A stretch of DNA of 63,460 nucleotides, filler included, from Reclinomonas americana ATCC 50394 (GCA_048213135.1; 4 parts of 3 records of this genome joined end to end with filler, not necessarily neighbours in it), one strand, 5' to 3'. Shown: positions 105-63,405, counted from the first letter of the whole stretch. The notes: a model not told the origin generated them from the letters alone. Translations and numbers: made by a program.

Positions 105-3100
105 TTTGGTGCTTCGACAATTCCGGATCCGGCCGCCGCCACGGCGCATGCAGCGACCGCTCCCGATTCGACCGCCACGGGAATGGTGCCGGGTCGTGGA
201 GGCGATGACGATGTCACGTTGGCGACGGCCGTTGGTGGCGATGGCGCTCAGGGACCATCGGATCTGGGGTTGCGTCATCGCTGTCCATTATCGCACGCTG
301 ATTTGTGCTCATTTCTCTCACAGTCTGGTGCCGGTGGTGGATCCGACGCTCGGTGTGCTGGAGGCGGAGCTGGAAAAGTACTCGCCGGGCATGTTTGCCT
401 CGTGGCACCGGCGCTACGTCCGGTTCGTCCTTTTCCTACTCTTTATGGATCACAACTCGACAGTTAGTGCTGATATTTCCTTCTATTTGTCCCACACACA
501 GCGTGGAAGGCGCAACTCTGTTTGTGGCCAAGAGTCTGGCACAGGCTGGCCGCGCCAAGGCTCTCCAGCTTCTGGGTGCCGACATTACGCAGGGACCGAG
601 CAGCAAGTTCAAGCAGCGTCCGTTTGTCATTCGCATCACCACCAGCGGCGGGCGCAAGGTGAAGTCGCCTTTAGCAGCCCCTTGTTTCCCTCAGTGCTCG
701 TCGGGCTCACTGTGCGCGCTCGATTCAGACCACGTGGCTGGCCTTCCAGGATCCGCGTCAGCTCGACGACTGGCTGACCAGTCTCAAGAAGCGCACCGTG
801 CAAGTGCGATCGACATTTGAACATGGCGAGCTGCTCAACGCCAACCATCTGACCAACTTTGCGCCGTCGGCACTGACGCCAGCCGAGCTATCGTTCCGTG
901 AACTCGTTCTTCCTCGCGATACCAACTCATTCGCTGACTGAAGCATTGCGTTGCGCCAGGGCCTCGACCGTGGACGACGACTATCTCGATCAAATGGCGG
1001 CCACCATCCCGAACCTGGACACCAACTTTGGTACGCGGATTGTACATCTATTCTGTCTCTCCTTGTCCCTCACCCTTTACCATTCCGTGCAGACTGGAAT
1101 GAAGTCTACCAGCATCGTATGCAACAGCCAGAGGAGCAGGTGAATGACCGCATCGCCAAGGGTCTGGCCGTCGCCGACTTGCTGGGGCAATTTGCTCGGC
1201 GCACCGAGTTGCGTTGCTGCGGCATCTCCCCAGAGGCCGTATCTTACAACGCACTCACACGCTTTGACTTTCGCTATCGACAGGCACATTGCTCGACTCA
1301 TCATCAATGAATACACCAAGCCGACGGCCGATAAGTTGATCAAGCCGGTGACCAACATCAGTGAGTATTCGCTGTACATGACACCGCGCGACGACATTTT
1401 CGCCGTCGACAATGTGGTGTATCGCATCTGCCACGCCGACTCGCGTTGCGTCGCGCCTCCCGTCACACTCATCTACGATGCACGAGCTGATCGTCGTCCG
1501 TGCAGTGACACACGAGTTTTCGGCCATTGATGGCGACGAAGCGGAGATGCGTTTTGTCGGTCACGAAATGGAAGCGGTGCGGTACTACCTCGAGGTTGCT
1601 CCGTCGGCGCTGTGCTTCCCTCTGCGCACGTCCATTGATTTCAAGGGCTTCCGCGTGGAGGCCACGGCCGAGTTGCCCGTCGATCCAGACAGCACCCTCA
1701 TCTACGGAGCCGATGCGCCCAGAGTGCGCCGCGAAGAGGACTTTTTGCGTCTCATTCGCGAGTGTGCAACGACCATGAATGTCAAAGAACGTGAGTGCTG
1801 CACGCGATGGTGAAGAGAGACAAAATAATTGATCTTGTTGTGATTGCAGACTTTGTGTGCTGGGAGCGGGAGCGGCCGGTCAAGATCTTCACGTCGCAGG
1901 ATGCCGAGGGCCATCACGGTGCCGACGGTCGGTACTATTTGACTGGGTTGCAGCGCACGCTGCCCGTCGACGTCAGTGCGGCACCGGAGCTGCGAGAGGA
2001 GCGCCAGTTTTATCGTCTGCGTCGCGAGTTCCTGCGCCAGTATCGCGCACCGTTGAGCTCCGACGGATTCCGCGACATGCCGGGAGTCAGTGACGCAGAG
2101 GTCAATGCGTTTGAGATTTCGCAGGCGTGCGCCGAGCTGCAGACCAAGGTCTCTGTGTGTGTGTGGATGCTTGGAGTGAGTGTGTGAGTATTTTGCTCAC
2201 GAAATGGGCGACAGGTAATCCCGGCGTTTGTGGAGCTGCTGGACGGCATGCGGATCAAGCCGTACCATGGAGCGCAGCTGGCCAAGTGCATGCACAAGAG
2301 CGGCATTAATATGCGCTATCTCGGAGTGATTGCTGAGCGCACGCGACTGCCTCACATTCGCGAGCTGTGCGTGGTGGAAATGTGTGCGCGCACCTGCAAG
2401 CGCATCTTTGGGCGCGTATTGCGCGAGGCGCAGGAGAAGAAACGCAGCCGCAATGCTTATGTTGCGTGCGACCGCAAGAGATATAGCCACGCGTGCGGAG
2501 TCGACGCCTCTGCTTACACGTCCTCGCAGCTGAGTTACTACGCGGAACCACTCTTCCCGTCCGACAGTGAGCAGAAGCGCGACGAGTTCCAGTCGCAGGC
2601 CGTGGACTTTTTCAATTTGGTGTTGGGCCAGAGCGACGAGTCGACGAATGTTGCGCTGTGTGCAATAGTGTCCTCGTTTTGCAACACGCTGACAGTATGT
2701 GTGCACATTCAGTTCTGGAACACGGTGCTCAAGCAAGAGGTCCAGCTGCGCTTTGCACACGAACTCGTCGAGCAGCCTGCACACAAGGCCGCTCTCTTTG
2801 TCAGCATGCAGCAGCATGTTGCGTTACGCAAGCTGCTGCTCTCTGTCTCTCTCTGGTTTTGTCGTGCGGCTCACTCTCCTCCCCTGCTTTGCCGACGACA
2901 GTGCGGTGTGGTGTTCCGTGTGGCAGAGCGCTACGATTTCTCCGGCACTGCGCGCCCGATTGCCAGCACCGACTTTTTGCGCTTTGTGCCTCGCACGCGA
3001 CACACATTTTCCGATGGCCTCGCCGTCAGCCAGCTGCAGCAGAAGCTGGACGAGATGTTGGCGAAGGGCGAATACGAGATCGCCTCGCGTGTGATGAACG

Positions 3101-15749: not shown

Positions 15750-16826
15750 ATGTCACTCTCCACCGCCGCTCTCCCTTCCAAGTGTTTGTCGGGCCACCTT
15801 CTCTGGGTGCTGTCCGTCGTCGTCACTCCCGATGGTCAGTTCATTGTGAGCGGCAGCTGGGACAAGACAATCCGCGTGTGGTCGTTGGCGACTGGAGTGG
15901 AGGTGCGATGTTTGCGGGGCAACACCGCCTGGGTGCATTGTGTTGCCATGACGCCTGATGGCCAGCTCATCGTGAGTGGAAGCAATGATTGGTTGGTGCG
16001 AGTGTGGTCACTGGCGACGGGAGAGGAAGTGAGACGATTGGAGGGGCATGGTGGGAGAGTGGAATGCGTTGCCGTCACCCCTGATGGCCAGCATGTGGTG
16101 AGTGGAAGTACTGATGCGACAGTGCGAGTGTGGTTGCTGGCGAGTGGAGAGGAGGTGCGACGGATGGCTGCACACACGAGAGCAGTGTCATCTGTCGTTG
16201 TCAGCAGCGACGGCCGACTTGTGGTGAGCGGCAGCAACGACTGGACCGTGCGAGTGTGGTCACTGGTAACTGGGGAGGAGGTACGACGGTTGAGCGGGCA
16301 CACTCGGCCGGTGACGTCTGTCGCCATCACTCTCGATGGACAGTTTGTGGTGAGTGGGAGTGGAGACAAGACGGTGCGGGTGTGGTCGCTGGCGAGTGGA
16401 GAACAAGTGCAACGACTGGACGGGCATGGTGCACAGGTAAACTCTGTCGTCGTCACTCACGACTCTCAGTTTGTGGTGAGCGCGAGTGATGACAAAACAG
16501 TGCGAGTGTGGAGCTTGGCGAGCGGCAAGGAGGTGCAACGGCTGGAGGGGCACGATAACATGGTGGTATCCGTCGCCGTTTCTCCCGATGGCGAGTACAT
16601 TGTGAGTGGCAGTCACGACGAGACGGTGCGAGTGTGGTCCACGCCACGCGGACTTGCTCGAAGAGAGCTCGATGTGGCGAGGTTGGCGATGCAGGCCGTG
16701 CAGGAGATGCAGAGCGAGGATGCAGATTCGCGGTGTCTGCCGGAGATGGTGATGCGCTGCTTCATCGTGGAGGAGGCCGAGGTCGTGTTGCATCGAAGCG
16801 TCGCTGATCTAGGCACTCACTGGTGA
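15750..16826 (+). CDS. Intronless WD40 protein, 7 repeats plus conserved C-terminal tail (paralog 3)
   Basis: Seven WD40 repeats and the same tail. Confidence 0.92.
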   Translation: MSLSTAALPSKCLSGHLLWVLSVVVTPDGQFIVSGSWDKTIRVWSLATGVEVRCLRGNTAWVHCVAMTPDGQLIVSGSNDWLVRVWSLATGEEVRRLEGHGGRVECVAVTPDGQHVVSGSTDATVRVWLLASGEEVRRMAAHTRAVSSVVVSSDGRLVVSGSNDWTVRVWSLVTGEEVRRLSGHTRPVTSVAITLDGQFVVSGSGDKTVRVWSLASGEQVQRLDGHGAQVNSVVVTHDSQFVVSASDDKTVRVWSLASGKEVQRLEGHDNMVVSVAVSPDGEYIVSGSHDETVRVWSTPRGLARRELDVARLAMQAVQEMQSEDADSRCLPEMVMRCFIVEEAEVVLHRSVADLGTHW

Positions 16827-17250
16827 ATTGCAGAGGACACTGCACGGCCAGCATCGCCTGCGAGTGGCGGCGCCGTGACATTCTGGTCTCCCGGCAAACG
16901 AGGCACTGAGAGAGAGGGAAGTCAAATACAAGTGATACAGTACGAGCTCGAGTCTAGATGAGAGAGGTGGAGTCCGTGATCAGTATCTTAGATGAATCAA
17001 TGACTGTTAGCCCGCTACCAACGTTCAGGATGCGATCGTACTGTTCAACCACGCTCACGCGGTGAAGATCGCACGCGAGAACCGACAGCGAAAGTGCTCC
17101 CGTTGCCTTTCTTTCCAGAATTGCATGCGCTCTTCAATGGCTTGCGAATTGTCAACTGCAGCAAAACGCAGCAGAGATATCGATGGCAGTTTTGTGTACG
17201 CTGAGATCTTGATACCTTACACGAGGCACCCACTGGTGTTGGTGTTGATG

Positions 17251-19203: not shown

Positions 19204-19600
19204 GCCACCGACCGCTTGTCTGTCTGTTTGCTTGTGGGTGGGGGAGGAGAATCAATGGAAAAATGAATGTCAATAGTGTGAACGAACGCGTAGTCTCTGG
19301 TGCATCGTGCAGACATCTCCACTGGCGTGATACTATAACTGATCGCCAACATGCTCTCTTCTCAAGTGGTCCGATTCAGAATGCACAGCCACCAGAGAGA
19401 AGAATTCGTCAGCAAAGAAGACGCTCATAGCAGAAACTGCGTCCAAGTGAAGAAAAAGTCAAAGCGTCTATGAGCCCGCTTGGAAACACATTACCATCTC
19501 GAGTGTGAATCAGAGATGGTGCAGTCTGGCGTTCCTCCTGCAATCACAAACTCCAACCAGGAACGCCGGCTCCACAAGATGTAACTGTACAATCACCCGC

Positions 19601-22600
19601 TCAACACATGCTTCTAATCAACTCCACCAACTGCTGCGCTCGCGTGCGCTGAATGGGTGGCCCATCCAGTTGTCCGACCGCCACTCGACGCATGAGGCCG
19701 CCCATGCCCTCGGTGCCGGCCATCAGCGCCGCCCACTGCGTGCCATACGTACTATCCTGCGTCATAACGAACAGCGCGTTGGCGGCGCTCGTGGCCACGC
19801 GATTGTTGCGATGCACGAGGCACTGCGAGAGGAGCGAGACCGCTTCCGACACAAACACGCGCTCCACCACGTCGGGCGACACGCCGGGTCGTTCGAGCAT
19901 GGCGGCCAGCGTCTCGGCGGCCCACACGTGCTCATACGGCGTGCACTCGGGCAGCAGCAGCGTCACCAGCGCGTTGGCCGATCCCGCCTCCTCCACCATT
20001 TCTTGCACCGCCGGCTGGTTCTGCGCAAAGAACATGAGCGCGCGACTCGCCGACATGTTCAGTTCGGAGGGGAAGTCCATGGCTGCGCGTGTGTGGAGAA
20101 GGGTGAGCACTCATCATCATCATCCTTCCCAACACAAGAGTGAGACTCACGTTCGCCGCCCTCCTCGGACTCGGCGGTCTCGAGGTACACGTCGGCGAGC
20201 ACCATGAGGAAATCGATGCCACTGGCGGCCAGCACCACGTCAATGTTGTCGGGGTTGCCGCGGCACGCGCTGACCACGCACGAAACCGCCTTTTCTTGCA
20301 CCGTGTGCAAATCGTGGTTCAGCAGCTGCACCAGCGGCGTCAGGCCACCGGCCCCGCGGAAATCCACTTGCGACTCGGGCGCCGACTCGAAGCACAGGCG
20401 CAAGCACTTCATGATTAACTCCATGAACTCGGGCATGGCCTTCTCGTCCACCGCCATGGCCAGCGCCGTGGCCAGATCCAGCGCGCACGACCGCAACGCG
20501 TGCTCCGGCAGCTCCAGCTCACTGGCGTGCGCCGACGTGAGGCAGTTGGTGATGGAGCGCGACAGCGAGCACAGCATGTCCATCANNNNNNNNNNNNNNN
20601 NNNNNNNNNNNNNNNNNNNNNNNNNNNNNNNNNNNNNNNNNNNNNNNNNNNNNNNNNNNNNNNNNNNNNNNNNNNNNNNNNNNNNNNNNNNNNNNNNNNN
20701 NNNNNNNNNNNNNNNNNNNNNNNNNNNNNNNNNNNNNNNNNNNNNNNNNNNNNNNNNNNNNNNNNNNNNNNNNNNNNNNNNNNNNNNNNNNNNNNNNNNN
20801 NNNNNNNNNNNNNNNNNNNNNNNNNNNNNNNNNNNNNNNNNNNNNNNNNNNNNNNNNNNNNNNNNNNNNNNNNNNNNNNNNNNNNNNNNNNNNNNNNNNN
20901 NNNNNNNNNNNNNNNNNNNNNNNNNNNNNNNNNNNNNNNNNNNNNNNNNNNNNNNNNNNNNNNNNNNNNNNNNNNNNNNNNNNNNNNNNNNNNNNNNNNN
21001 NNNNNNNNNNNNNNNNNNNNNNNNNNNNNNNNNNNNNNNNNNNNNNNNNNNNNNNNNNNNNNNNNNNNNNNNNNNNNNNNNNNNNNNNNNNNNNNNNNNN
21101 NNNNNNNNNNNNNNNNNNNNNNNNNNNNNNNNNNNNNNNNNNNNNNNNNNNNNNNNNNNNNNNNNNNNNNNNNNNNNNNNNNNNNNNNNNNNNNNNNNNN
21201 NNNNNNNNNNNNNNNNNNNNNNNNNNNNNNNNNNNNNNNNNNNNNNNNNNNNNNNNNNNNNNNNNNNNNNNNNNNNNNNNNNNNNNNNNNNNNNNNNNNN
21301 NNNNNNNNNNNNNNNNNNNNNNNNNNNNNNNNNNNNNNNNNNNNNNNNNNNNNNNNNNNNNNNCGCGCTCGATTTCGCTCTCCTCGCACTCACTGGCGTC
21401 GATGACGATGGATTCGAGGCGAGGAATGCCGTCGCATTCGCGGAGGAGTTGGAGGGTGCCCTCGCCTGGAAGAGCGGGAAGGGGGGAAGGGGGCAAAGGG
21501 GAAGGGGGCACAGGGGAAGGGGACAAAGGGGAAGGGTGAGGGGAAGGGGGGAAGGGTGCAAAGGGGAGGGGAAGGGGGAAGGGGAAAGGGAAAAGGATGC
21601 GATGCGTGGAGCAAGTTGACAGAAGGAAGGCGATAGTCGATACAGAAAAAGGAGTGGCAATAAGATGAGTTATTAAAAAGCTGAAGAGACCGAAAGCATG
21701 ACACACGGACAAGCTCAGAGGATGGACAGGACGGAGATGCAGACGACAAACGAGATAAGGAGATCGAAGGGCACACGTTGAATGAGAGTGGCCACGCAAG
21801 CCGCAGACGATGAGAAGTGCGAGTGGACAAAAGGAGGTGAACGCGACAAACAAGGTGATGTGGTTGAAGGGCACAGGTTGAGTGAACCAAATGTCAGAGG
21901 ATGCGAAGTGATGGAAATGCACGACAAACAAGAAAGGAGATCAAAGGGCAAGTTGAGCGCAACAAACGTCAGAGGGGGAAAAGGAAATTGATAATGACTG
22001 GAGGCAATGAGAACAGACAAGAAAGAATGCACAGAGACCGAAGGGTACACGTTGCATGAGAGTGGCCACGCAAGCCACAGACGATGAGAAGTGCGGGTGG
22101 ACAACAAGGAGATATACATGACAAATAAGCGAAGGAGATAAGTCGGCACAGTTGAGTGAAATAAGCATCAGACGATGAAATCGCGGGTGGACACCAATGA
22201 GATGCACGAGACAAACAAGGTGAGGAGAGCAAGATCGCAATGAGATAATGTGACCAAGCAAGTGGTAGAGGACGAGAAATGCGGGTGGACAACAAAGTGA
22301 TGCAAGGGCAGACAAGAGAAAGAGATAAAAAGGCAATGAGTGAATCAAACGTCAGAGGATGCGGTGAGAGGTGGACAAGATGAAGATGCACACGGCAGAT
22401 CGAAGGGCACAATCTGAGTGAGAGAGAGAACAAAGACGAGGAAAGGATGCTGACAAAGCACAATGAGGAGCACAAGAGAGAGAGAGAGAGAGAGCACTGC
22501 AAAGTCACGGAGGATGACGTACAGATGTTGACTGTGAAACAGTGACGTGGACATGTAGAGACAAACGGCAAACAAAGAAAAGGAGATCAAAGGGCAAGTT

Positions 22601-23002
22601 GAGTGAATCAAGTCAGAGGATGCGAAGATGCACACGGCAGACAAGAAAAGGAGATCGAAGGGCACAATCTGAGTGAGAGGGTGACCACGCAATCCTCAGA
22701 AGATGAGGAAAGCAGGCTGACGAAAGCACAAAAACGCGCACAAGAGAGACAAGCCACAGAGGATGACGTATGGAAGCTGACAATGAAATGAGGAAGCACA
22801 GTGAGGTGGACACGTAGAGAATGCACATGGCAAACAGGATAAAGAGATCAAAGGGCAAGTTGAGTGAATCAAACGTCAGAGGATGCGGTGTGAGATGGAC
22901 AAGATGAAGATGCACAGGGCAGATTGAAGGTCACAATCGAGAGAGTGACCACGCAATCCTCAGAAGTTGAGGAGAGGCGGCTGACAAATGCACAATGAGG
23001 TA

Positions 23003-23072
<70 letters not shown>

Positions 23073-23515
23073 GACTGCGAGCCGCAGAGGATGACGTATA
23101 GAAGCTGACAATGAAATGAGGAAGCACAGTGAGGTGGACAAGTAGGAAATACACATGAAGAGAACGACAATCAGGAGCTGCCTGTTTGAGTACGAGAGCC
23201 ACACACACACATGCAGCAGCAAACAAAGCACGCAGAAGAGTGACACACACACTCACGCACCCTTGGAGATGCTCTCCAATGACTCCGCCATTGATCTCCG
23301 ATGCGCAAAGCTCGATCGCTTGCTCTCCATGCCACTCAAGGCGCGATCAACCTTGCCCAGCACTGACAGAGAGAGAGAGAGAGTATGTGTGTGAGAGAGT
23401 GACGAATTTGGAAGGCGGCGTTGGCGACTGCTCCTATATTCACACACACACTCTGACACACACATTGTGTCTCTTGATGCCACAGAGGCACATGCGTGTG
23501 TGCGTGTCTGAGTGT

Positions 23516-35520: not shown

Positions 35521-35790
35521 TCTCTCCCTCTCCCCCTTCCCTCCCATTCCTCCCAACCCTCTCCCCATTCGCCCACCCTCCCCTCCCTCCCTCCCCTTCC
35601 CCTCTATCCCCTGCACACTCAACTCCACCGCCTTGGCCACCTCCGGAGGCACCTCAAACATTCCCCGAATCGTCACCGGAAACGTCACCACACGCACCAC
35701 AGACCACTTCACTGCCACGTCACCACCAGTATCATTGCCCATCACAAACGCAAGCCTTCTCAACCCGCGAAACCTCTGCAGCGCATCCAT
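34129..35790 (-). CDS. Hypothetical two-exon protein ending in -AKL (PTS1-like)
   Basis: Exon 35624-35790 joins exon 34129-34411 in frame across intron 34412-35623 (GTTGAGT...CAG). Confidence 0.55.
34776..35103. repeat. 129-bp tandem repeat, about 2.5 copies, intronic
   Basis: Units start at 34776, 34905 and 35034. Confidence 0.9.
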
Positions 35791-43330: not shown

Positions 43331-46300
43331 TTGCCGTAGGCCTCCTGCTGGCGCATTACCACTCGAATGCTGGTGGACGAGCTGGCTGCGGCATCAACGG
43401 CGCCTCCGTGACTATTGAGGAACGCGAACACTGAGTGCGTGTCGACTTCAACTGACACCATGATAATGACGCAACGCCAAGATGAGACCGCGCAGACGAT
43501 CACGCTGTCCCTTGCTGGCAATGTCGTCGGCGGAAATGATGAAACGCAAGCCCTCCAGCACGCATTCGTTTTCTCCCATCAGCGGTTCCTCCACCACGTC
43601 CTCGTCTTCTTCCTCCTCTTCGTCAGCCTCCTCGACCTTCTTCTTTTCTTCCACCACTCGACGACTTTGCTCGGGAGTGCCGGACGATGACGCAGGTCGC
43701 AGCCGGCGCGACTCGTCGAGCATCTGCAGGCCAGCCGCAAGAGGAATGGTCGGTGGTTTGGGGGCAACCTGTCTTCTTGTATGAGAGGCAACGAGGGTGA
43801 GAGGAGGGCGAAGGAGGGGAGAAAGCGCAACTACGCGACCGAAATCCATGTTGCGAGGCACTGGTATCGGTGCCATGTCAGGCTTGTAGGCGACGTGTGT
43901 GGGCGTTCGTTGGCTTCCCGAAGTCGGCGATACGGATGAGGACTGCGTGGGTGACGAAAAGGAGTGGGTGGGGGAGCAGGAAGAAAGAAAGGGGAAGAAG
44001 AGCGAGACAGGCGAGAACGACGATTGTTTCTCGTTTTTCGACCTCGTCGACCCCTCTTCCTCTCTCAGACGGGCGCAAGATAGAAGGATGAGTGCCCCGC
44101 AGAGAAGGAAGACACAAAGGGAGAGTTCTGTGTTCTCTCACAAAAGAGAGACTTCTCTTTCCTTCTCGCAGAAAGAGAGAGTTCTCATTTCTCTCGCAGA
44201 AACAGAGTTTCAGAGAGAGAAAGTTCTCTGTTTTCTCACAAAGAAAGAAAGCGTTCTCTTTTTTCCTCACAGAAACAGACGTTCTCTTTTCTCTCACAGT
44301 AAGAGAGAGTCCTCCTTCCTTGCAGAACAAGACAGTTCTCACTTCTCTGACAAAACGGCTGCTTTTTTCTCTCGCAGAGAGAGAGAGAGAGCTCTCCGTT
44401 TTCTATCAGAAAGAGAGTTCTCCTTTCTCCATAGGTGCAGAGAGATGACTTTTCTCTCACACAAAAAGAGTTCTCGTTTCTCTCGCAGCAAGAAAGAGTT
44501 TTTTCCTCTCTCACAGCAAGAAAGAGTTCTTTCCTCTCTCACATGAAAAGACAGTTAGTTCTCTGTTCTCTCGAAGAAAGGGACAGTTCTCTATTCTCTC
44601 GCAGAAACAGAGAGATCTCTTATCACACAATGAGAAACAAAATGGGGTGGAGTGAAACTTACCGATCCAGATCCACCAGATCCATCGCCAGGCTGCGTCA
44701 GAGATGACCGCTGGTGAGACAACAATCAGAAGCAGCGGATGCAGCAGAGGACACGCAACCTTGTAGTAGTAAATGTACGTGGGAACACCGCGTGCCACCA
44801 GCATTTTCTTCACCAGCTTCTCGTAGCGGTACCACACGTCGAGCGGAACTCCACGACCGCCGATGCGTGGCATGTGCAACGAGGCTGCACACGAAAGAAG
44901 TGAGACACTCGCGAAAGCAGGGAGAGTGCATGACAAGTACACCAACCTCCCGTCGTCTGCGCGTGCTGCAGCACACGATCAAAGGCCTTGGAGAGAGCGC
45001 GCTCATCAATGGGACCATTCTGTCGCTGCGTGGCGTCCCATCGCTGTACAATGAGCAGGATCACGTGCACGGTCGACGATACGACACAGAGGTGCGCGTC
45101 GCCGAGGTGCAGATCGTTGTTGGCCGCACTGTCGCGGTACGTCTGCGCAATGGTGGGCGACAGGTCGCCAATGGTGCGGTTGAGGGCGAAGTTGCCCCAG
45201 TTGCCCGAGTCGTTCAGGAAGCTGTGAGGAGAAGAAGAGAATAAGGGGAGAGAAGGGGGAAGGGAAAGAGAGGAGAAGAGGGGGAGGAGAGGAACGAGGA
45301 GAAAGAACNNNNNNNNNNNNNNNNNNNNNNNNNNNNNNNNNNNNNNNNNNNNNNNNNNNNNNNNNNNNNNNNNNNNNNNNNNNNNNNNNNNNNNNNNNNN
45401 NNNNNNNNNNNNNNNNNNNNNNNNNNNNNNNNNNNNNNNNNNNNNNNNNNNNGGAAGGGAAAGGAGGAGAGGGAGAAGAAGAAGAACAAGGATAACAATG
45501 AGAACAATTACAACACCAACAACAACAAGATGGCATCGATGACGATGACGATGATACAGAAGAAGAAGATGGATTTTGTAGGAAGAGGTAGACGAACAAA
45601 AGGAGGCGGAGGAGGAGGAACAAGAAGGGGAAGCAGAAGAACAGGAAAAGGAGATGCAGAATGATGGGGGAAGGCGGAGCAGAAGGAGAAGCAGAAGCAG
45701 GTGAATATGGAGAAGGAGATGCAGAAGTATCTGATGGGCAAGTGGGAGCAAGAGAAGAATGGAGAAGAAGAAGAAGAGGGTTGATTCGCAACTGCAGAAT
45801 ACACATGACGGACTGCTGATGCTCTGGGAGGGCACACGTCTGCGGCTGTGACACATCGCCCATCACATAGTTGATGGCGGCATCGTCGTCGCCTGCTGCC
45901 AGACCGATGCTGCTGGCTGGTCTCGGCGGCAGATTGCGTGACCGATAACCACTGCTGCTGCCACTGCCACTGCCAGACGCTGCCGAAGCCGGGCTGGATC
46001 GCGGAGGGGGCATTGTGTCTGCAGTCTTTGTGCGCTTCACCTGCTCACGCTGCGTTGAGAAACGATCTTACGACTCGACAAAGAGTGATAAATAAAGCGC
46101 ACCACTGGTGAACCAGCGCCCAGGTCACTTACAGACTCGGCAATGCGCGAGCTCGCCTCGATGGCGGCCGCCCGCGGACGCTTGACGCCCGCCGTGGAAG
46201 GAGATGCTGCCGCAGTCGATGCACGTTTTCCATGGCCTTCTTCATCGTCAGTATCCAGCAGTGACGCACTCCGCGCAGCCTCGGTGCCCATAACGTCGGA

Positions 46301-49216: not shown

Positions 49217-49390
49217 GTGACGACGAAAGTAACGAAGTAGTTGACGAACGCGACTAACTTCCTTTCCTACCAACCAAGTCGGACCGACCGGACAACGAAC
49301 CTAACCTAACGTTAGGAACGGACCGGCCGGACCGGTCCGTTCGGTCNNNNNNNNNNNNNNNNNNNNNNNNNNNNNNNNNNNNNNNNNNNN

Positions 49391-49402
49391 TTAATTAATT
49401 AA
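49391..49402. other. Artificial contig linker
   Basis: TTAATTAATTAA between N runs. Confidence 0.95.
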
Positions 49403-49532
49403 NNNNNNNNNNNNNNNNNNNNNNNNNNNNNNNNNNNNNNNNNNNNTTCCTACGCCGTACCCTTCCTCCCCCCCCCCCCCCCCCTCCCCTCTCTCTCTTG
49501 CTCTCTTTCTCACACATTCCCACCCCATACAG

Positions 49533-50304: not shown

Positions 50305-50373
<69 letters not shown>

Positions 50374-53187
50374 ACTTTCTCTTACTTTCCCCGTCACAAC
50401 TTTTCTCCGTCTTTGCAGGGGCGGCCATCTCCACCATGCAATCTATAGCCTCGCCAGTGATGCAAGCGGTGACTACCAGCATGAGCATCACCGGCGCTGT
50501 GTTCGAGCGCAACATTGTCAACGTGCTGCACTACATCAGCGTGATATCCGCAATGTGCGTATTGCTTGATTGCGCGTGCCACCATTTCATGCTCAACTCA
50601 CTCGCTTGTTCTTCTCGTTGTCCAGCTTCTACGGTCCGGTTCTGGAGGTGGTGGGCGGCGGTGCCATTTCCATCTACAATTCGTATGCCGTCACCACAAC
50701 CGCCGTCTTCCAGTCCTGCACTTTCAGTCACAACTCGGTGCAGTATGTGGCTGCAGTGCTTCCGGCAATCACGGGGATGCAGAACGGTGGCCCTGAAGCG
50801 CTGATTGTGGGCGGAGGCTCGTTCTCGTTCTACTCCGCACAAAGTTACCCGACGGCGCCGTTGGTCGCTGTGGAGCCGTCTGTGCTGAACATCGACGCCA
50901 CAACATTTACCGGGGACTCGGTGTCCGTGTCGTCTGCTGGCCTATTTGGGCATTTGAATCTCCTGTCCAATTTGGTGGTGGGCGGAGGCAGTGTGTTGGC
51001 ACCGTTCATGGCAACTGGCAGTTTCCAGACAAGCCTGCAGAGTTCTCTGACCAATGTGACAGCCACCGGAGGACTGGTGTCGATCACCTCCATGTTCGCG
51101 AGTTCACTTGTGGCTGGAGGCGGCTTCCTGTTCTTTGACGGCCAGGCGACGACATTGTCGGCCACACTCACTGGATGCACCATCAGCAACATGTCGACAA
51201 ACATACGCACCGCTAACATTGGTAACGAATCATTCGACGCTCTATTGTGTTGCAAAGATGAAAGACTCATGTCTGACTGGTTTGCCTGCAGGTTTCATGG
51301 ACCTGAGCGGCGCGGTGTCAGCGTTTGGTACTGTGCCGGGCTTGGGCGCAGAGTATGTCTCCGGGTCACGTCGCTTGACTGTGCAGTCGAGTGCGTTCAG
51401 CGGTTGCTCGTTGTGGGCGACCAACATGACCAATTCGGCTGGCCTCGAAGGGACTGTATTTTCTTATCCAGTCATACGGGTCGCCGGCGAGTGCTCTTTG
51501 TGCGCACATCTGTTTCATCACATGCTCTTCTGACCAGTGTGTGTACAGGGGCGGCAATCAGCAACATCTACTACGAGTATAAGATTTCGGTTATCGAAGT
51601 TGACGTGTGGAACACCGTAATCACGGACTCGCTGGTGATGGCCATCAACATTACCATGGTACCGGCGGGTGTTTTTACGATCGGTACGTCCGTCCCCCGT
51701 TCGGATCATGCAGTTGTGCTGCTGACCCTGTTTGGCTGCTGGTTTCTCAGGTGGATCCGTCTATTCTGTGCGAAACGCTTGAGTCCAGTCATGATCGTGA
51801 ATATTTCTGTTGATAACCCTTTCCATGTGTGTGCGCTCAGGGAGCCAATTCTGCTGCTGGTGGAACTCAGCCTTCCATAAGCACCATCCTCAGCGTGTTG
51901 TCGTCCAATTTTCAGCGCAACAATGTGACTGCCATTGGTGTCATCATTGGCACTCCCACGTTTCGCTGTCGAGAATCTCTTGTCCAGATTGTTTTAATGC
52001 GTCTTACTTGCCGTCTCCGTGCAGTTCCAGCGCCTATTCCCCTTCACAAGTGCCGGTTGTTCCTCGGCTGTTTATTGGTGGTTCCGGTGAATCACTCTGT
52101 CCCACGCACTGGTTGGCGCGCGCTCTCTCTCTCTCTCTCTCAACACTCACCCTCCTCAACACAACTCAGCGATCATGGGTTTGGGCTTCGCCGGTGTTAC
52201 TCCGGGCAGGTCTGAGCCAGTTCATTTCTGTGTATCTGTGAGCCGCTCAAGCCGCTGACCTGTGCTACTGTGCAGCTTTTTCTCCTCGCCATTGACGACA
52301 TACCAGATGACGATGAACAACTCGACCCTGACGAATAACAATGTCGAGGTCGTTCTCCTTCTCTCCACAAACTCGTTCGATGGAATCCTCCCCACTGTAT
52401 TTATTGGCGGTGCCAAGTTCAGCTTGCATGTATTTAATCCACCACGTCCCTGTCTCCGCTGTCTGCTCATCAGCTCCACCTTAATCTTACAGTATTGCAT
52501 CGTCGGTGGGCGAGAACTGCGGTCTCAACTCGACAGTCACCGTGCAAAATTCTCAGTTTTTCAACAATCGTGTGAAAGGTGTGCGACTGTGTATGATTGT
52601 CTTGCATGACTGCCCTTGTTGTCTCATTTCTTTCATTACTACAGTTCACAATGCCACTGGTGCGCCATCACTGCACAGTGTTGTAGTGTGCGTTCGCTTT
52701 TTTTGATTGATTCTCTTCACGTATATCGCAGTATGGGGTTCCATGGCTGTCGGTGGTGGTGCGTTTGCGTCCACCTATCTTACGCCGTACCAAAGTGGCA
52801 TGGTGCAGTCGACGGCTTTGAACACGATCTCGGTGACCTCCACTTCCTTCATGCGCAACTCTGTGGAGGTGATTTTGATGCGGGTCGTGTTCTTAATGGT
52901 ACTCGAGCACCTGTTGATTCAAATCTACACAATCTAGGTCGGGTTCATTAATTCGGCGGACTGTGCGTTCGGTGGTGGTGAGTACAAGACCCACTCCTGC
53001 AGCCGGTCCTTACCCTCCTCCGTCATCACCTCACGCGTGCGCTGCTACAGGCGCTGCTTTCATGGCGGCCAACTCCACAGGCATAGTGCAGTCGGCGTTG
53101 AGCGTGACTCTAACCGACGTCTCTGCGGCATATAATTCTGTGAACTTGAGCGCGCTGTATCCGGTGCTGCGAAATACAACGCTCTCT

Positions 53188-53188
<1 letters not shown>
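49533..53188 (+). CDS. Large extracellular Ser/Thr/Asn-rich protein, probable right-handed beta-helix (GGA(I/F) and FxxN motifs); partial
   Basis: Many short exons with repeated VGGGAISI, CTFSHNSV, VGGGSFSF, SNFQRNNV, SQFFNNRV and GGGAFAS. Confidence 0.7.
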
Positions 53189-53277
<89 letters not shown>

Positions 53278-54206: not shown

Positions 54207-54842
54207 ACACAGATAGTACATGCCCGGCGACGCCAGCGTGCACGATCCAGTTGCCGTTGCATCGAGAGCACCCTGCGCAAACGCGGAGCCAGTGGCCACC
54301 GAAAAGTCAACATGCAGGCCATCCGGATCGCTGCCCTGCAGAGTGACGCTCGAGTTCGCCGCCGGCGATCCGCTGCAGTCCGCGGCCGAGTACAGACCAA
54401 ACGAGCCACCAGCACCCAACTCACGATTGGCAAAGTGCTCACCGACAACCGTCAGGTGGAAGTCGGCGATGCCGTTCACCAACTGCGGCGACTTGCTCTG
54501 CTCGCCGAGCGTGTCTGCGTGGACTAGAGTGAGATAGAGGAAAAAGGGGAGAGGGATAGAGAGGGAGAAGGGCGAGAAGAGGGAAGACGGAGAGTGAAAG
54601 GAAAAGGGAATGGGAGAGGGAAGAGGAAGGAAGGAGAAGGGGAAAGGGAAAGAGAAGGAGACATAACAGAAGAGGACGAGAACGGCATGAATCAGTGGTT
54701 CACACGCGGAGACTGAGTGAGTGAGTAAGTGTGTGTGTGTAAGAGAGAAGGAAGAGATCAAGGGAGATCACGGCCGCGAGAGACGTGCAGTGAACAGAGA
54801 GGGAAGACTATTGAGAAAACAAGCAAAAAAGCAAGCGAGTGA

Positions 54843-54873
<31 letters not shown>

Positions 54874-55036
54874 CAGGGTGGAACCTTCGAGAGTGATCTT
54901 GAGNNNNNNNNNNNNNNNNNNNNNNNNNNNNNNNNNNNNNNNNNNNNNNNNNNNNNNNNNNNNNNNNNNNNNNNNNNNNNNNNNNNNNNNNNNNNNNNNN
55001 NNNNNNNNNNNNNNNNNNNNNNNNNNNNNNNNNNNN

Positions 55037-55070
<34 letters not shown>

Positions 55071-55811
55071 AGGGTGGGAGTGATCTTGAGTGTGCGGGGA
55101 GAGGGAGGGAGAGAGACAAGAGGAAGGGAACAAGAATACAAGCAATAAACAATCAGCGGTGTTCACACGAAGAGAGAGAGGGAGAGAGAGGGAGAGAGAG
55201 AGAGAGACAGAGAGAAACAGAGACAGAGTACGAGAGAGAAAGAAAAACAGAGAGAGACAGAGAGACACACACATTGCCCTCCTCATCAAGACGCAACAGA
55301 CAAACACCGTGGCCACAAACTCGTAGCGTGCTTCCACGCCTTCTTCACCATCCACATCAACGCACAGATACCGCTCGCCTCCACTGCCATCGCGCGACGC
55401 ATCAAAGGCGAGCGACGAGGCGCCGGAGTTGTTGTTGTTGACAAGGACGACGGCGATCGGAGATGAACTCGTGCATGCGCGATCGAGAAAGAGAGTGGCA
55501 GTGGAGGCCGTCGACTGCCACGAGCCACTAATGTCAACAAGCTGAGCGGCGGTGCCGGCCTTGATGGCAATGTTGGAGGGCGAGAAGACTGGATTGGATT
55601 TCGCGCGCAAATCGTGAGTTATAAGTTTGTGCGGTGGTGCATATAAAAAAACGCGCGCGTGCGTGCACACAGAGGATATGGTGACGCAACTGAGAGGCGG
55701 CTCCTCTGCAGAGGACAGCAGTGGAGAGAGCAAGAGCACTAAGAGTGCGCAAGTGGCAAAAAACACACTTGCGCTCGTCCGTGTTGCAGTGGGCGGCTGT
55801 GTGTTTCTCAT
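54207..55811 (-). CDS. Secreted or surface protein with signal peptide and repeated beta-sandwich-like units; 3' end lost in gap
   Basis: Signal-like FFATCALLVLLLSPLLSSA; two units, each with a central Cys and ending in YLC. Confidence 0.6.
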
Positions 55812-57124: not shown

Positions 57125-60100
57125 TCAACATGAAAGACGGGAAATCTGACCACCGTTCACCACCGCCACCAGCTTGGAGCCATCGNNNNNNNNNNNNNNN
57201 NNNNNNNNNNNNNNNNNNNNNNNNNNNNNNNNNNNNNNNNNNNNNNNNNNNNNNNNNNNNNNNNNNNNNNNNNNNNNNNNNNNNNNNNNNNNNNNNNNNN
57301 NNNNNNNNNNNNNNNNNNNNNNNNNNNNNNNNNNNNNNNNNNNNNNNNNNNNNNNNNNNNNNNNNNNNNNNNNNNNNNNNNNNNNNNNNNNNNNNNNNNN
57401 NNNNNNNNNNNNNNNNNNNNNNNNNNNNNNNNNNNNNNNNNNNNNNNNNNNNNNNNNNNNNNNNNNNNNNNNNNNNNNNNNNNNNNNNNNNNNNNNNNNN
57501 NNNNNNNNNNNNNNNNNNNNNNNNNNNNNNNNNNNNNNNNNNNNNNNNNNNNNNNNNNNNNNNNNNNNNNNNNNNNNNNNNNNNNNNNNNNNNNNNNNNN
57601 NNNNNNNNNNNNNNNNNNNNNNNNNNNNNNNNNNNNNNNNNNNNNNNNNNNNNNNNNNNNNNNNNNNNNNNNNNNNNNNNNNNNNNNNNNNNNNNNNNNN
57701 NNNNNNNNNNNNNNNNNNNNNNNNNNNNNNNNNNNNNNNNNNNNNNNNNNNNNNNNNNNNNNNNNNNNNNNNNNNNNNNNNNNNNNNNNNNNNNNNNNTT
57801 GCAGCTGGCATTCGTGTAGTCGCCAGTGCACAGGCAAGAGCCGTCACCTTGACAACTTCCATGACCCGAGCACGAAGCCGACGGACTGCAGTTGCAGCTG
57901 GCATTGGTGTAGTCGCCAGTGCAGTCACACGCCCCCGTTGTCGTGTTGCACGTGCCATGTCCAGAGCACGTCGTTGCCGCCACACAGTTCAAATTGCACG
58001 ATGCGCCGTAGAAGTCAGCGTCGCATTGACAAGTACCGTCTGTCTTGCACGTTCCGTGACCGGAGCACGTGGTAGCCGCCACACAGTTCACGTTGCATGA
58101 TGCACTGTAATAGTCAGCGTTGCACTGGCACGTGCCGTCACTCTTGCACGTGCCATGTCCAGAGCACGTGGCTGCCGCCACACAGTTTACAGTGCACGAT
58201 ACACCATAATAGTCAGTATCACACTGGCAAGTGCCATTGGCGTTGCATGTTCCGTGGCCGAAGCACGTCGCAGTAGGACTGCAGTTGCAGCTGGCATTTG
58301 TGTAGTCGCCAGTGCACTGACAGGTGCCAGTATTCGGATTGAGCATGCCGTGGTCCGAGCACACAGAGCAGCCACCGAGATTCAACGTGTACACCCGACC
58401 ACTGCTCGCAACAAGCACCAGCTTGCTACCGTCACTGGTGGAGGCCACTCCAGTCCAGCTGCGACTGGAATCACGCGCCGACCATGTGACACCAGAATCA
58501 TTGGAGATGAGGATCTGACCTGCATTCAATACTCCAACCAGCCGGGTTCCATCATTGCTGGAGGCCACTGCACTCCACGGACGATTCGCATCGGTAGCCC
58601 TAGCCGTCCACGTCACACCAGAGTCAATGGATGTGTACAACAGACCACCGTTCGATAGAGCAACCAGCTTTGTACCATCACTATTGGACGCCACTGCAAC
58701 CCAGTTTCGGGTTGAGTCGCGCGCCGTCCACGTCGCCCCCGAGTCGATGGAAGTATAGATCTGGCCGTTCTGCACGACAGCCACCAGTTTGGTCCCGTCA
58801 CTGCCGGAGGCAAGTCCAATCCAGTTACGAGCAGAATCCCGTGCTATCCACGTCACACCAGAGTCGACAGACGTGTAGATCAGACCTCCAAAGTCAGCAG
58901 CCACCAATTTGGTACCGTCGCTACTCGAGGCCACTGCAAACCAGCTGCGACTGGAGTTGCGCGCCGTCCACGTCACGCCAGAGTCGATGGAAGTGTAAAT
59001 CTGACCACCCTGCACTGCAGCCACCAGCTTGGTGCCGCTATCGTCGGAGGCCGNNNNNNNNNNNNNNNNNNNNNNNNNNNNNNNNNNNNNNNNNNNNNNN
59101 NNNNNNNNNNNNNNNNNNNNNNNNNNNNNNNNNNNNNNNNNNNNNNNNNNNNNNNNNNNNNNNNNNNNNNNNNNNNNNNNNNNNNNNNNNNNNNNNNNNN
59201 NNNNNNNNNNNNNNNNNNNNNNNNNNNNNNNNNNNNNNNNNNNNNNNNNNNNNNNNNNNNNNNNNNNNNNNNNNNNNNNNNNNNNNNNNNNNNNNNNNNN
59301 NNNNNNNNNNNNNNNNNNNNNNNNNNNNNNNNNNNNNNNNNNNNNNNNNNNNNNNNNNNNNNNNNNNNNNNNNNNNNNNNNNNNNNNNNNNNNNNNNNNN
59401 NNNNNNNNNNNNNNNNNNNNNNNNNNNNNNNNNNNNNNNNNNNNNNNNNNNNNNNNNNNNNNNCGTTGCCGCCACACAGTTCACATTGCACGATGCACCG
59501 TAGAAGTCAGCGTCGCATTGACAAGCACCGTCTGTCTTGCACGTTCCGTGACCAGAGCATGTGGTGGCCGCCACGCAGTTCACATTGCATGATGCACCGT
59601 AATAGTCAGCGTTGCACTGGCATGTGCCGTCACTCTTGCACGTGCCATGTCCAGAGCACGTGGCTGCCGCCACACAGTTTACAGTGCACGATACACCATA
59701 ATAGTCAGTATCACACTGGCAAGTGCCATTGGCGTTGCATGTTCCGTGACCGAAGCACGTCGCAGTAGGACTGCAGTTGCAGCTGGCATTAGTGTAGTCG
59801 CCAGTGCATTGACAGGTGCCAGTATTCGGATTGAGCGTGCCGTGGTCCGAGCACACAGAGCAGCCACCGAGATTCAACGTGTACACCTGACCATTGTTCA
59901 CAGCAAGCACCAGCTTGCTACCGTCACTGGTGGTGGCCACACCGAACCAATTGCGACTGGTATCACGCGCCGACCATGTGAAACCGGAGTCAATGGAGAT
60001 GTAGATTCGATCAGAGAAATTGGTTACAGCAACCAGCCGGGTTCCATCGCTGCTGGAGGCCACTGCACTCCATGGGCGATTCGCATCGGTAGCCCTAGCC

Positions 60101-61494
60101 GTCCACGTCACACCAGAGTCAGTGGACGTGTACACCCAAACACCGTTCCATAGAGCAACCAGCTTGGTACCATCACCGTTGGATGCCACTGCAATCCAGT
60201 TTCGGGTTGAGTCGCGCGCCGTCCACGTCGCCCCCGAGTCGATGGAAGTATAGATCTGGCCGTTCTGCACGACAGCCACCAGTTTGGTGCCGTCAACGTT
60301 GGAGGCCAGTCCAATCCAGTTACGAGCGGAATCACGAGCTGTCCACGTCACACCAGAGTCGACAGACGTGTAGATCAGACCTCCAAAGTCAGCAGCCACC
60401 AATTTGGTACCGTCGCTACTCGAGGCCACTGCAAACCAATTGCGATTGGAGTTGCGCGCCGTCCACGTCACGCCAGAGTCGATAGAAGTGTAAATCTGAC
60501 CACCCTGCACTGCAGCCACCAGCTTGGTGCCGCTATCGTCGGAGGCCATAGCTCGCCAGCTGCGGGCGGAATCGCGAGCAATCCACGTTACACCAGAGTC
60601 AGTGGACGTGTAGATCTGTCCATTCTGCAGCGCAGCCGCCAGCTTGAGGCCGTCACTGCTGCTGACCACTGTCCTCCACGTTGCTGCTGCACGCAACCCT
60701 TGTGATGTGGCTCCNNNNNNNNNNNNNNNNNNNNNNNNNNNNNNNNNNNNNNNNNNNNNNNNNNNNNNNNNNNNNNNNNNNNNNNNNNNNNNNNNNNNNN
60801 NNNNNNNNNNNNNNNNNNNNNNNNNNNNNNNNNNNNNNNNNNNNNNNNNNNNNNNNNNNNNNNNNNNNNNNNNNNNNNNNNNNNNNNNNNNNNNNNNNNN
60901 NNNNNNNNNNNNNNNNNNNNNNNNNNNNNNNNNNNNNNNNNNNNNNNNNNNNNNNNNNNNNNNNNNNNNNNNNNNNNNNNNNNNNNNNNNNNNNNNNNNN
61001 NNNNNNNNNNNNNNNNNNNNNNNNNNNNNNNNNNNNNNNNNNNNNNNNNNNNNNNNNNNNNTGGACTGCAGTTGCAGCTGGCATTCGTGTAGCCGCTCGC
61101 GCACTGACAAGTGCCGTCACTTTTGCACGTCCCGTGACTCGAGCACGTCGCCGATGGACTGCAGTTGCAGCTGGCATTCGCGTAGTCGCCAGTGCACAGG
61201 CACGAGCCGTCACTCTTGCACGTTCCATGACCCGAGCACGTCACCGATGGACTGCAGTTGCAGCTGGCATTCGTGTAGTCACCGGTGCAGTCACACGCCC
61301 CCGTTGTCGTGTTGCACGTGCCGTGTCCAGAGCACGTCGTCGCCGCCACACAACTCACATTGCATGATGCGCCGTAGTAGTCGGCAACGCATGCACAAGT
61401 ACCATTGGCGTTGCATGTGCCATGACCAGAGCACGTCGTGCTGGGACTGCAGTTGCAGCTGGCATTGGTGTAGTCGCCAGTGCACAGGCAAGAG
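57125..61494 (-). CDS. Very large surface protein alternating EGF-like repeat blocks and BNR/Asp-box propeller blocks; gapped and partial
   Basis: CSGHGTC...CQCDADFYGASC repeats and SSDGTKLVA...GQIYTSIDSGVTWTAR repeats; no introns in the sequenced parts. Confidence 0.85.
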
Positions 61495-61538
61495 NNNNNN
61501 NNNNNNNNNNNNNNNNNNNNNNNNNNNNNNNNNNNNNN

Positions 61539-61550
61539 TTAATTAATTAA
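61539..61550. other. Artificial contig linker
   Basis: TTAATTAATTAA between N runs. Confidence 0.95.
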
Positions 61551-61742
61551 NNNNNNNNNNNNNNNNNNNNNNNNNNNNNNNNNNNNNNNNNNNNTACCTC
61601 CTCTCTCTCTCCTCTCTCCTCCTCTCTCTCGCCGCTCTCTTCTCTCTCTCTCTCTCTTCTCTTTCTCTTTCTCTCTCTCTCTCTCTCTCTCCCTCCTCGC
61701 ACCATCACTCACGCTGTTCTCCTCTCTTGCCCTTCCCCCCAG

Positions 61743-63405
61743 GCTACTACGAAAACGTCGTTTTCCACCGCATCATTCGCAACTTTATGATGCAAGGCGG
61801 TGATCCCACTGGCACCGGGCAAGGTCTGCAAATCTCCCCCTCTCCCTCCTCCTCCTTCCCCCTCTTCCCACCTCACACCTCACACCTCCTCCTCCTCCCC
61901 CTCCTCCTTCTCTTGTGCCCAGGTGGTGAATCGGTGTACGGTGCGCCGTTTGAGGATGAATTCCACTCGCGTCTGCGCTTTGGCCGGCGTGGCATTGTGG
62001 CGATGGCGAATGCCGGCCGCAACGACAACGGATCGCAGTTTTTCATCACGCTGGGCGCGTGTGAGTGGCTGAACAATAAGCACACGATATTCGGCAAGGT
62101 CGTCGGCGACACGATTTACAATGTGGCGCGCATGGGCGAACTGGACACGGACACGGACGATCGGCCGCTGTATCCGCCCGTCATTCAGCGCGCGGAGGTG
62201 TTGTGGAACCCATTCGAGGACGTTGTGCCGCGCGAGGGCGTCCGCACGGGTCGCATGGGTGCCAAGGCGGCGGAGGCGGCGGCCGAGGCCGAGCGTAAGA
62301 AGCGCAAGGAGGACAAGGGTGTGCGCAACACCAGCGTGCTCTCGTTTGCGGGTGAGGAGGACGGCGAGGATGCGTCCGAGTTGCCGCTGGCCAAGAAGAA
62401 GATTCGGTCGGCGCACGACGCCCTCGACGATCCGCGCCTGGCCAAGGAGACCGCCGCTCACTTGAAGAATCCCGGCATCACAGTGGTGGAGTTCAAGGAG
62501 AATGTGCGCGAGAAGCGGAAGAAGGAGGAGGACGAGGCGCAGAAGCGCGAGTCGGCAAAGGAGAAGGTGAGGAGGGATAGGAGGTGCAGGGCTGTGGAGG
62601 TTGTCGAGGTATTGATAATGGGTATGGCGTCGTAGGTGCGAGAAGCGGGCCGGCGTGCGGCGGAGACGCGCAAGGCGGCCGAGGAGAGCGGACTGGCGCC
62701 TGCTGAACCGCTGTTGACACCGGGCTCGTCGGCATTTGCGGCGGCCATGCGTGCCAAGCTGATGGAGCGCCAGCGTCGGTTAGCCGAGTCCGACAAGGGC
62801 ATGGACGATGACGACGACGATGAAGATGGGGAGGGTGGCGGTGGTGGTGATGATGATGGTAGCGAACTGGATTCGGATATTGAGCTGGACGAGGAGGCGG
62901 AGCGTGAGGTGCGCATGAAGAAGAAGAAGATCAACAAGGAGGCGAGGTTGAGCACGCTGAAATTCAAGAGCTTGCGACGGGAACAAAGTTGCGTGCGCGA
63001 TGGAGCGGCGATGAGGAAGAAGAGTTGGCTCACTTGTTTCGTGTGCGCGCAGAACTGCAAGAGCAATCCAAGCCGCTGTCGTATCTGGAGGAGCAGCGGA
63101 AAAAGTACATGGAGAAGAAGAAGAATTATTCGTCGCGCGAGAAGTGGACCCTGGAGAAGCTGCAGCAGTTCACCAACAAGCTGCGACAGGCCGACGAGGA
63201 GCTCGCCGCGCAGAGCAAGGGCAAGTCGGCGGCTGATGAGGAGGATGAGGAAGAGGAGGAGGAGGAGGAAGACGAGGCGGGTGAAGATGATGACAGCGAG
63301 GATGAGGAAAAGGCGAAAAAGGCGGCTGCCAAGGCCGGCAAAAAGTCGGCAGCCAAGAGCGCCTCGTGGATGGCCCACCGACTGCAATTTGAGAGCCAGC
63401 AAGCG
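61743..63405 (+). CDS. CWC27: Spliceosome-associated cyclophilin; partial at both ends
   Basis: [86 protein letters not shown]. Confidence 0.92.

Follow-up and report, generated by a model that had tools for sequence, protein, structure and literature searches.

Pairing of U1 small nuclear RNA (snRNA) with 5′ splice sites in an offset or bulged register is otherwise known only as a rarity. By the counts that PMC4856993 gives for humans, all validated noncanonical U1 registers together account for 3119 of 201,541 sites (1.5%), the bulge +2/+3 register for 54–68 sites or approximately 0.03% (Table 3 and refs 14 and 16 of that paper) and shifted-register sites for a handful (its ref. 10). On the side of the RNA, PMC12621601, in the part drawn on here, shows that the diplonemid S. 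specki carries a copy of U1 whose 5′ end is altered, and the alteration is proposed to suit unusual donors. Here we examine a stretch of 63,460 nucleotides (nt), filler included, from Reclinomonas americana ATCC 50394 (GCA_048213135.1; four parts of three records joined end to end with filler; hereafter the window), in which introns with the usual G at +5 (the normal class) stand beside introns that open on GTTGCGT or a close variant, with G at +6 and not at +5 (the shifted class). The evidence base is these 63 kilobases (kb), 11 genes and gene models of our own. Most likely, the second class is genuine and reflects an offset 5′ splice-site word that this lineage in particular uses in bulk, far more common here than the rare human sites of the same type.

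The window is that of an intron-rich eukaryote whose introns are short (approximately 55–85 nt) and carry a branch word CT[CG]A[CT] approximately 20 nt from a terminal CAG. Within it, GTTGCGT occurs 23 times against 8.88 (standard deviation (s.d.) 3.04) in dinucleotide shuffles, and GTTGMGT occurs 41 times against 20.5 (s.d. 4.6), counts that none of 100 shuffles reached in either case; the canonical heptamer that includes the last exon base, GGTGMGT, occurs 35 times against 19.6, an enrichment no greater than that of GTTGMGT. Across the 11 gene regions, GTTG[CA]GT is found 24 times on the sense strand and twice on the antisense strand. A branch and acceptor module, CT[GC]A[CT]...YAG, lies 45–110 nt downstream of 15 of the 23 GTTGCGT copies, compared with 16% for GTs in general (1197 of 7365) and 17% for the reverse complement of GTTGCGT (4 of 23), while the bare hexamers GTGCGT and GTGAGT are followed by the 3′ module at the background rate (13 of 77 and 12 of 82, or 15–17%). 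No other donor word of the window is as specific as GTTGCGT, and only two copies of GTTGCGT are not modelled donors: 6438, inside a long purine-rich intron, and 2461, unless it opens a further intron. These counts and the strand ratio bear out a first-pass annotation of the window that had reported donors with one extra base as real and frequent, and all 27 of the donors it listed (14 in the first gene and 13 elsewhere) carry the heptamers it gave, on the strands it gave. As a separate observation, bare GTGCGT and GTGAGT are poor intron predictors and are plentiful in GT-rich repeats.

With the exon–intron boundary written as a colon, normal donors take the form G:GT(G/T/A)(C/T/A)GT and shifted donors the form H:GTTGCGT. 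In the normal class (n = 45), position −1 is G in 38, +3 is G in 29, T in 9 and A in 5, +4 is C in 19, T in 13 and A in 11, +5 is G and +6 is T in 33. In the shifted class (n = 31), position −1 is G in 6, A in 9, C in 7 and T in 9, +3 is T in 30, +4 is G in 26, +5 is C in 25 and A in 5, +6 is G and +7 is T in 23. The shifted logo from +1 to +8 is thus the normal logo from −1 to +7, the exonic G included, except at the second place, where G becomes T. The exon −1G falls from 38 of 45 (84%) in the normal class to 6 of 31 (19%) in the shifted class (Fisher 1.5e-8), and the same drop is seen among the 40 introns that had been fixed ahead of any donor model (15 of 17 versus 4 of 21; Fisher 4.7e-5). 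The exonic G is therefore dispensable in the shifted class, as membership of a shifted register requires. Both the one-base offset between the logos and this depletion fit the earlier proposal that the first G of the intron stands in for the missing exon G, and its tally for the first gene, in which −1G is lacking at 12 of 14 shifted donors and present at 8 of 9 normal ones, was reproduced.

Away from the donor, the two classes are alike in median length (69 versus 74 nt), GC content, branch words, CAG acceptor and 3′ scores, and the branch A lies 20–21 nt from the 3′ end in both. Shifted introns carry CTCAC, CTGAC, CTCAT or CTGAT as the branch word in 25 of 31 cases (median 20 nt) and end in CAG in 28 of 31, matching the normal class. 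Because length, branch site and CAG are common to both, it is only the 5′ end that differs. The shifted introns begin with GT and end with AG, as U2-type GT–AG introns do, and their removal restores a reading frame or a homologous protein; taken together, these features strongly indicate that otherwise ordinary U2-type GT–AG introns here make abundant use of a second donor word.

Initial ab initio parsing relied on self-trained codon tables; it strayed into purine-rich repeats, and its output was set aside. A donor-blind parse, driven by codon bias and a 3′ model alone (the latter trained on the 40 introns fixed by frames or homology), recovers 20 of the 27 donors of the earlier list and places GTTG[CA]G at 19 of its 94 introns in the 11 gene regions, although only 1.45% of all GTs in the window belong to that word (binomial P = 1.5e-16). 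A two-class parse yields 82 introns, of which 45 carry G at +5, 31 (38%) carry it at +6 and lack it at +5, and 6 are of other kinds. The share of 38% depends on the model because the donor model of this parse already held both classes. T stands at +3 in 30 of the 31, among which the donors 51713, 51960, 52417 and 19605 are weak members. Shifted introns make up 15 of 24 in the first gene, 4 of 6 in ALG12, 3 of 7 in a CHD1L-like gene, 2 of 10 in GcvPB, 1 of 9 in a CRT-like gene and 0 of 5 in an isocitrate dehydrogenase gene, so that the distribution is uneven (15 of 24 in the first gene versus 16 of 58 elsewhere; Fisher 0.005). The description of these introns as a major class depends on 63 kb and our own models, and the share ranges from 15/24 to 0/5 by gene.

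Junctions were also placed by a custom protein-to-genome aligner that allows any GT..AG pair and contains no donor model. The protein searches returned none of the organism's own proteins. In GcvPB (9350–13136, minus strand), the spliced alignment gives 10 introns, identical with both homologues, a eukaryotic transcript and an alphaproteobacterial protein. Two of them are shifted, the GTTGCGT intron at 11729–12141 (−), also found by the donor-blind parse, and the GTTGAGT intron at 11547–11611 (−); both homologues select the donors 12141 and 11611 and join conserved residues without a gap. The remaining eight have G at +5, or GTGCAT. In ALG12 (25.5–28.5 kb, plus strand), the GTTGCGT donor of the intron at 27014–27161 (+) is used with 17 of 18 homologues, joining NRSSEWG to VMPVHWYF free of gaps. 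Three further ALG12 introns are placed at their shifted donors with fewer of the 18 homologues: 27410–27469 (+; GTTGCGT) with 6 and in the donor-blind parse, 27631–27689 (+; GTTGCGT; 3′ score 11.0) with 5, and 28037–28101 (+; GTTGCGA) with 1 and in the donor-blind parse.

The first gene of the window (gene 1; 102–7520, plus strand) encodes a CLU-domain/TPR protein. A word-index search with a CLU-like exon of gene 1 returned no match, and a full HMMER search returned only distant CLU-domain proteins with homology over approximately 1480–2780; few junctions of the gene can be tested by homology because its relatives cover only that part. The GTTGCGT intron at 1208–1283 (+), which has no in-frame alternative donor, is picked with 6 of 16 CLU-family homologues through a gap-free conserved join. 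With 14 shifted donors, 9 normal donors and one further intron at 2461, the coding sequence of gene 1 stays in one frame of 1457 residues across 24 introns and ends at a stop, so the frame continuity described in the first-pass annotation holds once that intron is added, whereas under donors restricted to G at +5 the frame breaks at 269, 1208, 1445 and 5506. The alternative in-frame donors are almost all non-consensus, the exceptions being 1361, which is excluded because the homologues require the next exon, and 6624, a consensus GTGCGT that leaves 6654 ambiguous.

Most of the shifted introns of gene 1, all on the plus strand, are also returned by the donor-blind parse. Those with GTTGCGT are 269–323, with one poor in-frame alternative donor, 1445–1505, for which the homologues are ambiguous, 2818–2901, 4122–4189, whose frame fits, 5506–5574, 6793–6849 and 7403–7468, the last intron of the gene, after which the frame reaches the stop. 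The same parse gives 893–959 (GTTCCGT; frame fits), 2650–2712 (GTTGCGC; also placed with 2 of 16 homologues), 4755–4828 (GTTGCGG) and 6654–6718 (GTTGAGT), to which 6624 is the possible alternative. It likewise returns 659–728, where the motif GTGAAGT is present and the frame fits as the earlier annotation had it; this donor has −1G and is shifted only formally. At 4361–4435 (GTTTCGT), the frame and the two-class parse agree and the donor-blind parse took 4271 instead. The added GTTGCGT candidate at 2461–2529 (69 nt) is weak: it is indicated by the frame, by the two-class parse and by an acceptor at 2529 in one homologue alignment. As a side observation, this segment, absent from the earlier list, contains a CTTAC branch-like word and a CAG.

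Elsewhere, the donor-blind parse finds GTTGCGT introns in the CRT-like gene (29697–29761, −; 3′ score 13.0), in a cyclophilin (CWC27-like) gene (62988–63052, +; 3′ score 13.0) and, with another acceptor, in an unnamed gene (54515–55297, −; 3′ score 13.2). In the Arm-repeat gene, a weak GTTGAGC candidate (19437–19605, −) comes from the parses only. Three candidates in the CHD1L-like gene come from the two-class parse. At 43769–44759 (−; GTTGCGT), a model of this parse only, the donor-blind parse moved the donor to 44754, the other GT within that heptamer; at 43412–43475 (−; GTTGCGT), in the C-terminal region, a reading of the sequence agrees and the 3′ score is low (4.5); and at 45222–45792 (−; GTTGCGA), a candidate that spans an N gap in the macrodomain region, the donor-blind parse took 45837. 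Cleavage at 45792 had been said to yield the histidine of a macrodomain motif; the frame fits, and the residue itself was not confirmed, as searching solved structures with single exons produced only one chance match and one weak macrodomain match (E = 0.16), neither of which can place the junction. At 35617–35623 (−), the GTTGAGT motif of a putative donor is present as reported, and the 1212-nt intron modelled from it was not confirmed. Three candidates with G at +6 in another unnamed gene (51713–52492, +; 51713 GTTGTGC, 51960 GTTTCGC and 52417 GTTCAGC), seen in the two-class parse only and with donor scores of 2.0–3.2, are doubtful.

U12-type introns have a donor word of their own and a branch word of their own near the 3′ end. 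The shifted class resembles them in presenting a second, highly conserved 5′ splice-site word that is independent of exon bases, and differs from them in that it shares branch, spacing and acceptor with the normal class and its donor word, GTTGCGT, is unrelated, with no sign of separate U11/U12-like RNAs; an assignment to the U12 type was rejected on these grounds. A close parallel is the human shifted register as set out in PMC4856993, in which all U1 pairs move by one position, the cut stays at GU and an intronic G replaces −1G. What sets the window apart from those sites is the scale, 31 of 82 modelled introns, together with a near-invariant GTTGCGT and poor pairing with canonical U1. The human bulge +2/+3 register described in the same paper shares the extra U after GU, the G at +6 and the U at +7, and differs in that −1G is depleted here; pairing of the bulge type was found only in three shifted donors, all of them with −1G, so the class as a whole falls outside that register. 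The S. specki U1, as far as PMC12621601 is drawn on here, has a run of C facing G-rich degenerate sites, with no offset class described, unlike the present case. None of the known systems compared is a two-class, one-base-offset donor system. A search of the literature, incomplete in coverage and not made by organism, found no published account of GTNNNGT or GTTGCGT as a donor class in bulk use. A scan of metagenomes with an ALG12 exon gave 14 loci at 38–53% identity, where GTTGCGT was at chance level and spliced alignments were noisy; as these loci are not close relatives, nothing follows from them about related protists.

The reading we favour overall, and to which we give an even chance, is that both classes present one word to an altered U1, with the pairing register offset by one. 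Both would show the same word, G-N-U-G-C-G-U, to an early reader of the 5′ splice site, most likely the U1 5′ end, and in the shifted class the first G of the intron would fill the place of the exon −1G. The cut would be set by the position of GU through later recognition by U6, U5 and Prp8, and would fall one base upstream relative to the word. The U1 of this organism would be expected to differ at the two positions facing +3 and +4 of the normal site (G-C, not U-U), so that the donors alone lead us to predict a single altered U1 or else an additional U1, and U6 would need to tolerate an extra base at +3.

Duplex energies were computed for the 45 normal and 31 shifted donors against the canonical 5′ end of U1, in the form that PMC4856993 prints, and against 256 trial U1 5′ ends. 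The canonical end gives a mean of −6.7 kcal/mol with the normal class and −1.8 kcal/mol with the shifted class, which hardly pairs in whatever register is tried; because it pairs barely with GUUGCGU, an altered or second U1 is to be expected, and the strong conservation of G at +4 and C at +5 is not what U-U at U1 positions 5–6 would lead one to expect. A U1 with G-C at these positions is calculated to reach −9.4 kcal/mol with normal and −6.7 kcal/mol with shifted donors. On these calculations, the near-absence of canonical pairing would favour a variant U1 over relaxed pairing. The loss of −1G points to an offset register over a bulged U, since −1G would still pair under a bulge.

That last point bears most directly on the proposal that the standard register is kept, with G+1 and U+2 paired, U+3 (or U+2) looped out and G(C/A)GU pairing as +3 to +6, which would amount to the human bulge +2/+3 in bulk. 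In its favour, the motif matches the one that PMC4856993 describes for the human sites, an extra U behind GU and then G+6 and U+7, and three shifted donors with −1G (11611, 29761 and 44759) can pair GU and G+6/U+7 around an unpaired stretch. Under such a bulge, however, −1G should still help, yet it drops from 84% to 19%; the bulge combined with the C+5 mismatch leaves almost no stability with canonical U1 (the mean of −1.8 kcal/mol); and the human register covers only 54–68 of 201,541 sites (PMC4856993). We regard a bulk bulge as unlikely. Somewhat less so, although still doubtful, is a pair of 5′ splice-site readers, in which the U1 for G:GTGCGT sites is joined by another U1-like snRNA, or by a U1 whose 5′ end has been rebuilt, serving an exon-independent class of about a third of introns; in its explicit form, a dedicated second U1 or U1-like snRNA complementary to GUUGCGU would pair in a straight register while the standard U1 served the normal class, within one U2-type spliceosome. 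In keeping with this, the shifted word is tighter inside the intron (T+3 in 30/31, G+4 in 26/31, C+5 in 25/31 and T+7 in 23/31) than the normal one (G+3 in 29/45 and C+4 in 19/45), it needs no exon base, and the classes are unevenly spread over genes. Trial 5′ ends with G-C at positions 5–6 and A or G at position 8 favour shifted donors (−9.7 to −9.9 kcal/mol) over normal donors (only −5.8 to −6.7 kcal/mol), and PMC12621601, in the part cited above, reports variation of the U1 5′ end in a diplonemid. Against two readers stand the absence of any snRNA gene within the window by Rfam, the acceptable service to both classes by a single U1 with G-C at positions 5–6, and the neat one-base relation between the logos, which two readers would not need.

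Two further explanations dispense with an unusual U1. If the shifted introns were copies of a mobile element (introners) carrying its own GTTGCGT end, their clustering in some genes would follow, and transposon-derived introns are known in protists (PMC11282704, as far as it is used here). An all-against-all comparison of the 82 introns, however, found only microsatellite matches, in long introns; the best pair of short shifted introns shares a 14-nt match, and similarity among them stops at +7/+8. Since the short shifted introns share no body beyond that point, they are not copies of a mobile intron, and we rejected the idea, which we find barely credible. A modelling artefact would mean that many of these donors are unused, that splicing takes place at different GTs or the segments encode protein, and that the enrichment of GTTGCGT has another cause; we consider this very unlikely. 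Homologues fix four junctions at residue resolution, and the 24:2 ratio of sense to antisense, the 3′ module at 15 of 23 versus 16% and the binomial P of 1.5e-16 all argue against it. The variant in which an extra T in GTGCGT is a sequencing error was rejected, as an inserted T would have kept −1G at 84%, not 19%.

Several observations nonetheless weigh against the offset reading or against particular donors, and some of them are what an artefact would produce. The donor-blind parse misses 7 of the 27 listed donors (4361, 27014, 27631, 35623, 45792, 44759 and 43475), and the model dependence of the 31/82 share counts here as well. At 27631, 11 of 18 homologues prefer a rival junction, 27666 to 27709 (44 nt), in a length-variable region of the protein, and at 1445, 7 of 16 prefer 1414 to 1516, again in a length-variable stretch, with 1 of 16 using 1445 with another acceptor. 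The in-frame consensus alternatives at 1361 and 6624 also speak for an artefact, as do four shifted introns (2461, 2650, 2818 and 27410) that are a multiple of 3 long and free of stops and could be coding. The position of the cut is a further point. Sliding both intron ends by +1 would not alter the protein at any of the four best-supported junctions and would leave the messenger RNA unchanged where the next exon starts with G, as at 9 of 31 shifted introns; such a slide would be opposed only by the GT–AG rule, and we infer cleavage exactly at GT from that rule, the frames and homology. As for pairing, the full offset register with canonical U1 is available to only 1 of 31 shifted donors (5506). 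An offset register also predicts a preference for A and C at −1 and −2, facing U10 and G11 of U1, and no such preference is seen (−1 is A in 9, C in 7, G in 6 and T in 9). Finally, the inference of a U1 from donors is weak because U6 and proteins also shape the 5′ splice-site consensus.

The genes of the window were assigned by Pfam. In addition to gene 1, GcvPB, which is of the bacterial type, and ALG12, they comprise a HIT gene, a WD40 gene (13409–16850, +), the Arm-repeat gene, the CRT-like transporter (−), the isocitrate dehydrogenase gene (+), the CHD1L-like gene (−), EGF/sortilin-like open reading frames (ORFs; −) and the cyclophilin, CWC27-like gene (+); the window also contains 18 runs of N, and the recurrence of the class on four contigs, as the earlier annotation had it, was not confirmed. 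No snRNA gene was detected in the window by Rfam, either at gathering thresholds or at E ≤ 1, and no transfer RNA gene was found in it. At E ≤ 1, Rfam returned only sub-threshold look-alikes of microRNAs and small nucleolar RNAs on GA/CT microsatellites. Such microsatellites and purine-rich low-complexity sequence fill the long introns at 3167–4027 and 5920–6590 (+) and at 11729–12141 and 12275–12994 (−), and together these explain all of the sub-threshold microRNA-like matches. A degenerate purine-rich tandem repeat at 21700–23200 (+), with units of approximately 90–270 nt, contains four copies of GTTGAGT, which are no evidence for donors because they are part of the repeat.

GcvPB is a split glycine dehydrogenase subunit of bacterial type that carries 10 spliceosomal introns; its top matches are alphaproteobacterial proteins, with 61–69% identity over one exon, and one eukaryotic transcript (P0050). 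Several of the closest relatives of the ALG12 protein (P0232, P0233 and P0235) have a C-terminal CS domain (PF04969), and the ALG12 of the window has a C-terminal extension after the 28037 intron (28102–28462, +). The WD40 gene consists of three near-identical units of approximately 300 residues, each with the same tail, DADSRCLPEMV(L/M)RCFIVEEAxVV, directly before an intron. At 57804–59051 and 59470–60669 (−), two long, near-identical, intron-free ORFs encode BNR/sortilin-like repeats followed by teneurin-type EGF repeats; as an N gap lies between them, the pair reflects duplication either in tandem in the genome or in the assembly.

If the reading is true, a genome whose introns use a fixed offset word, with no exon G, in roughly one case out of three would be a natural experiment on the choice of cleavage site versus U1 binding, set against a phenomenon that makes up 1.5% of human sites in the counts of PMC4856993. 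It would also bear on how U6 handles an extra base at +3 and on the co-evolution of the U1 5′ end with its donors. Should two readers be at work instead, the organism would offer a natural system in which U1 register and cleavage site are uncoupled genome-wide. For annotation, a gene finder that has learned only GTNNGT donors would get a large part of its genes wrong, as the fragmentation of gene 1 under donors with G at +5 alone illustrates.

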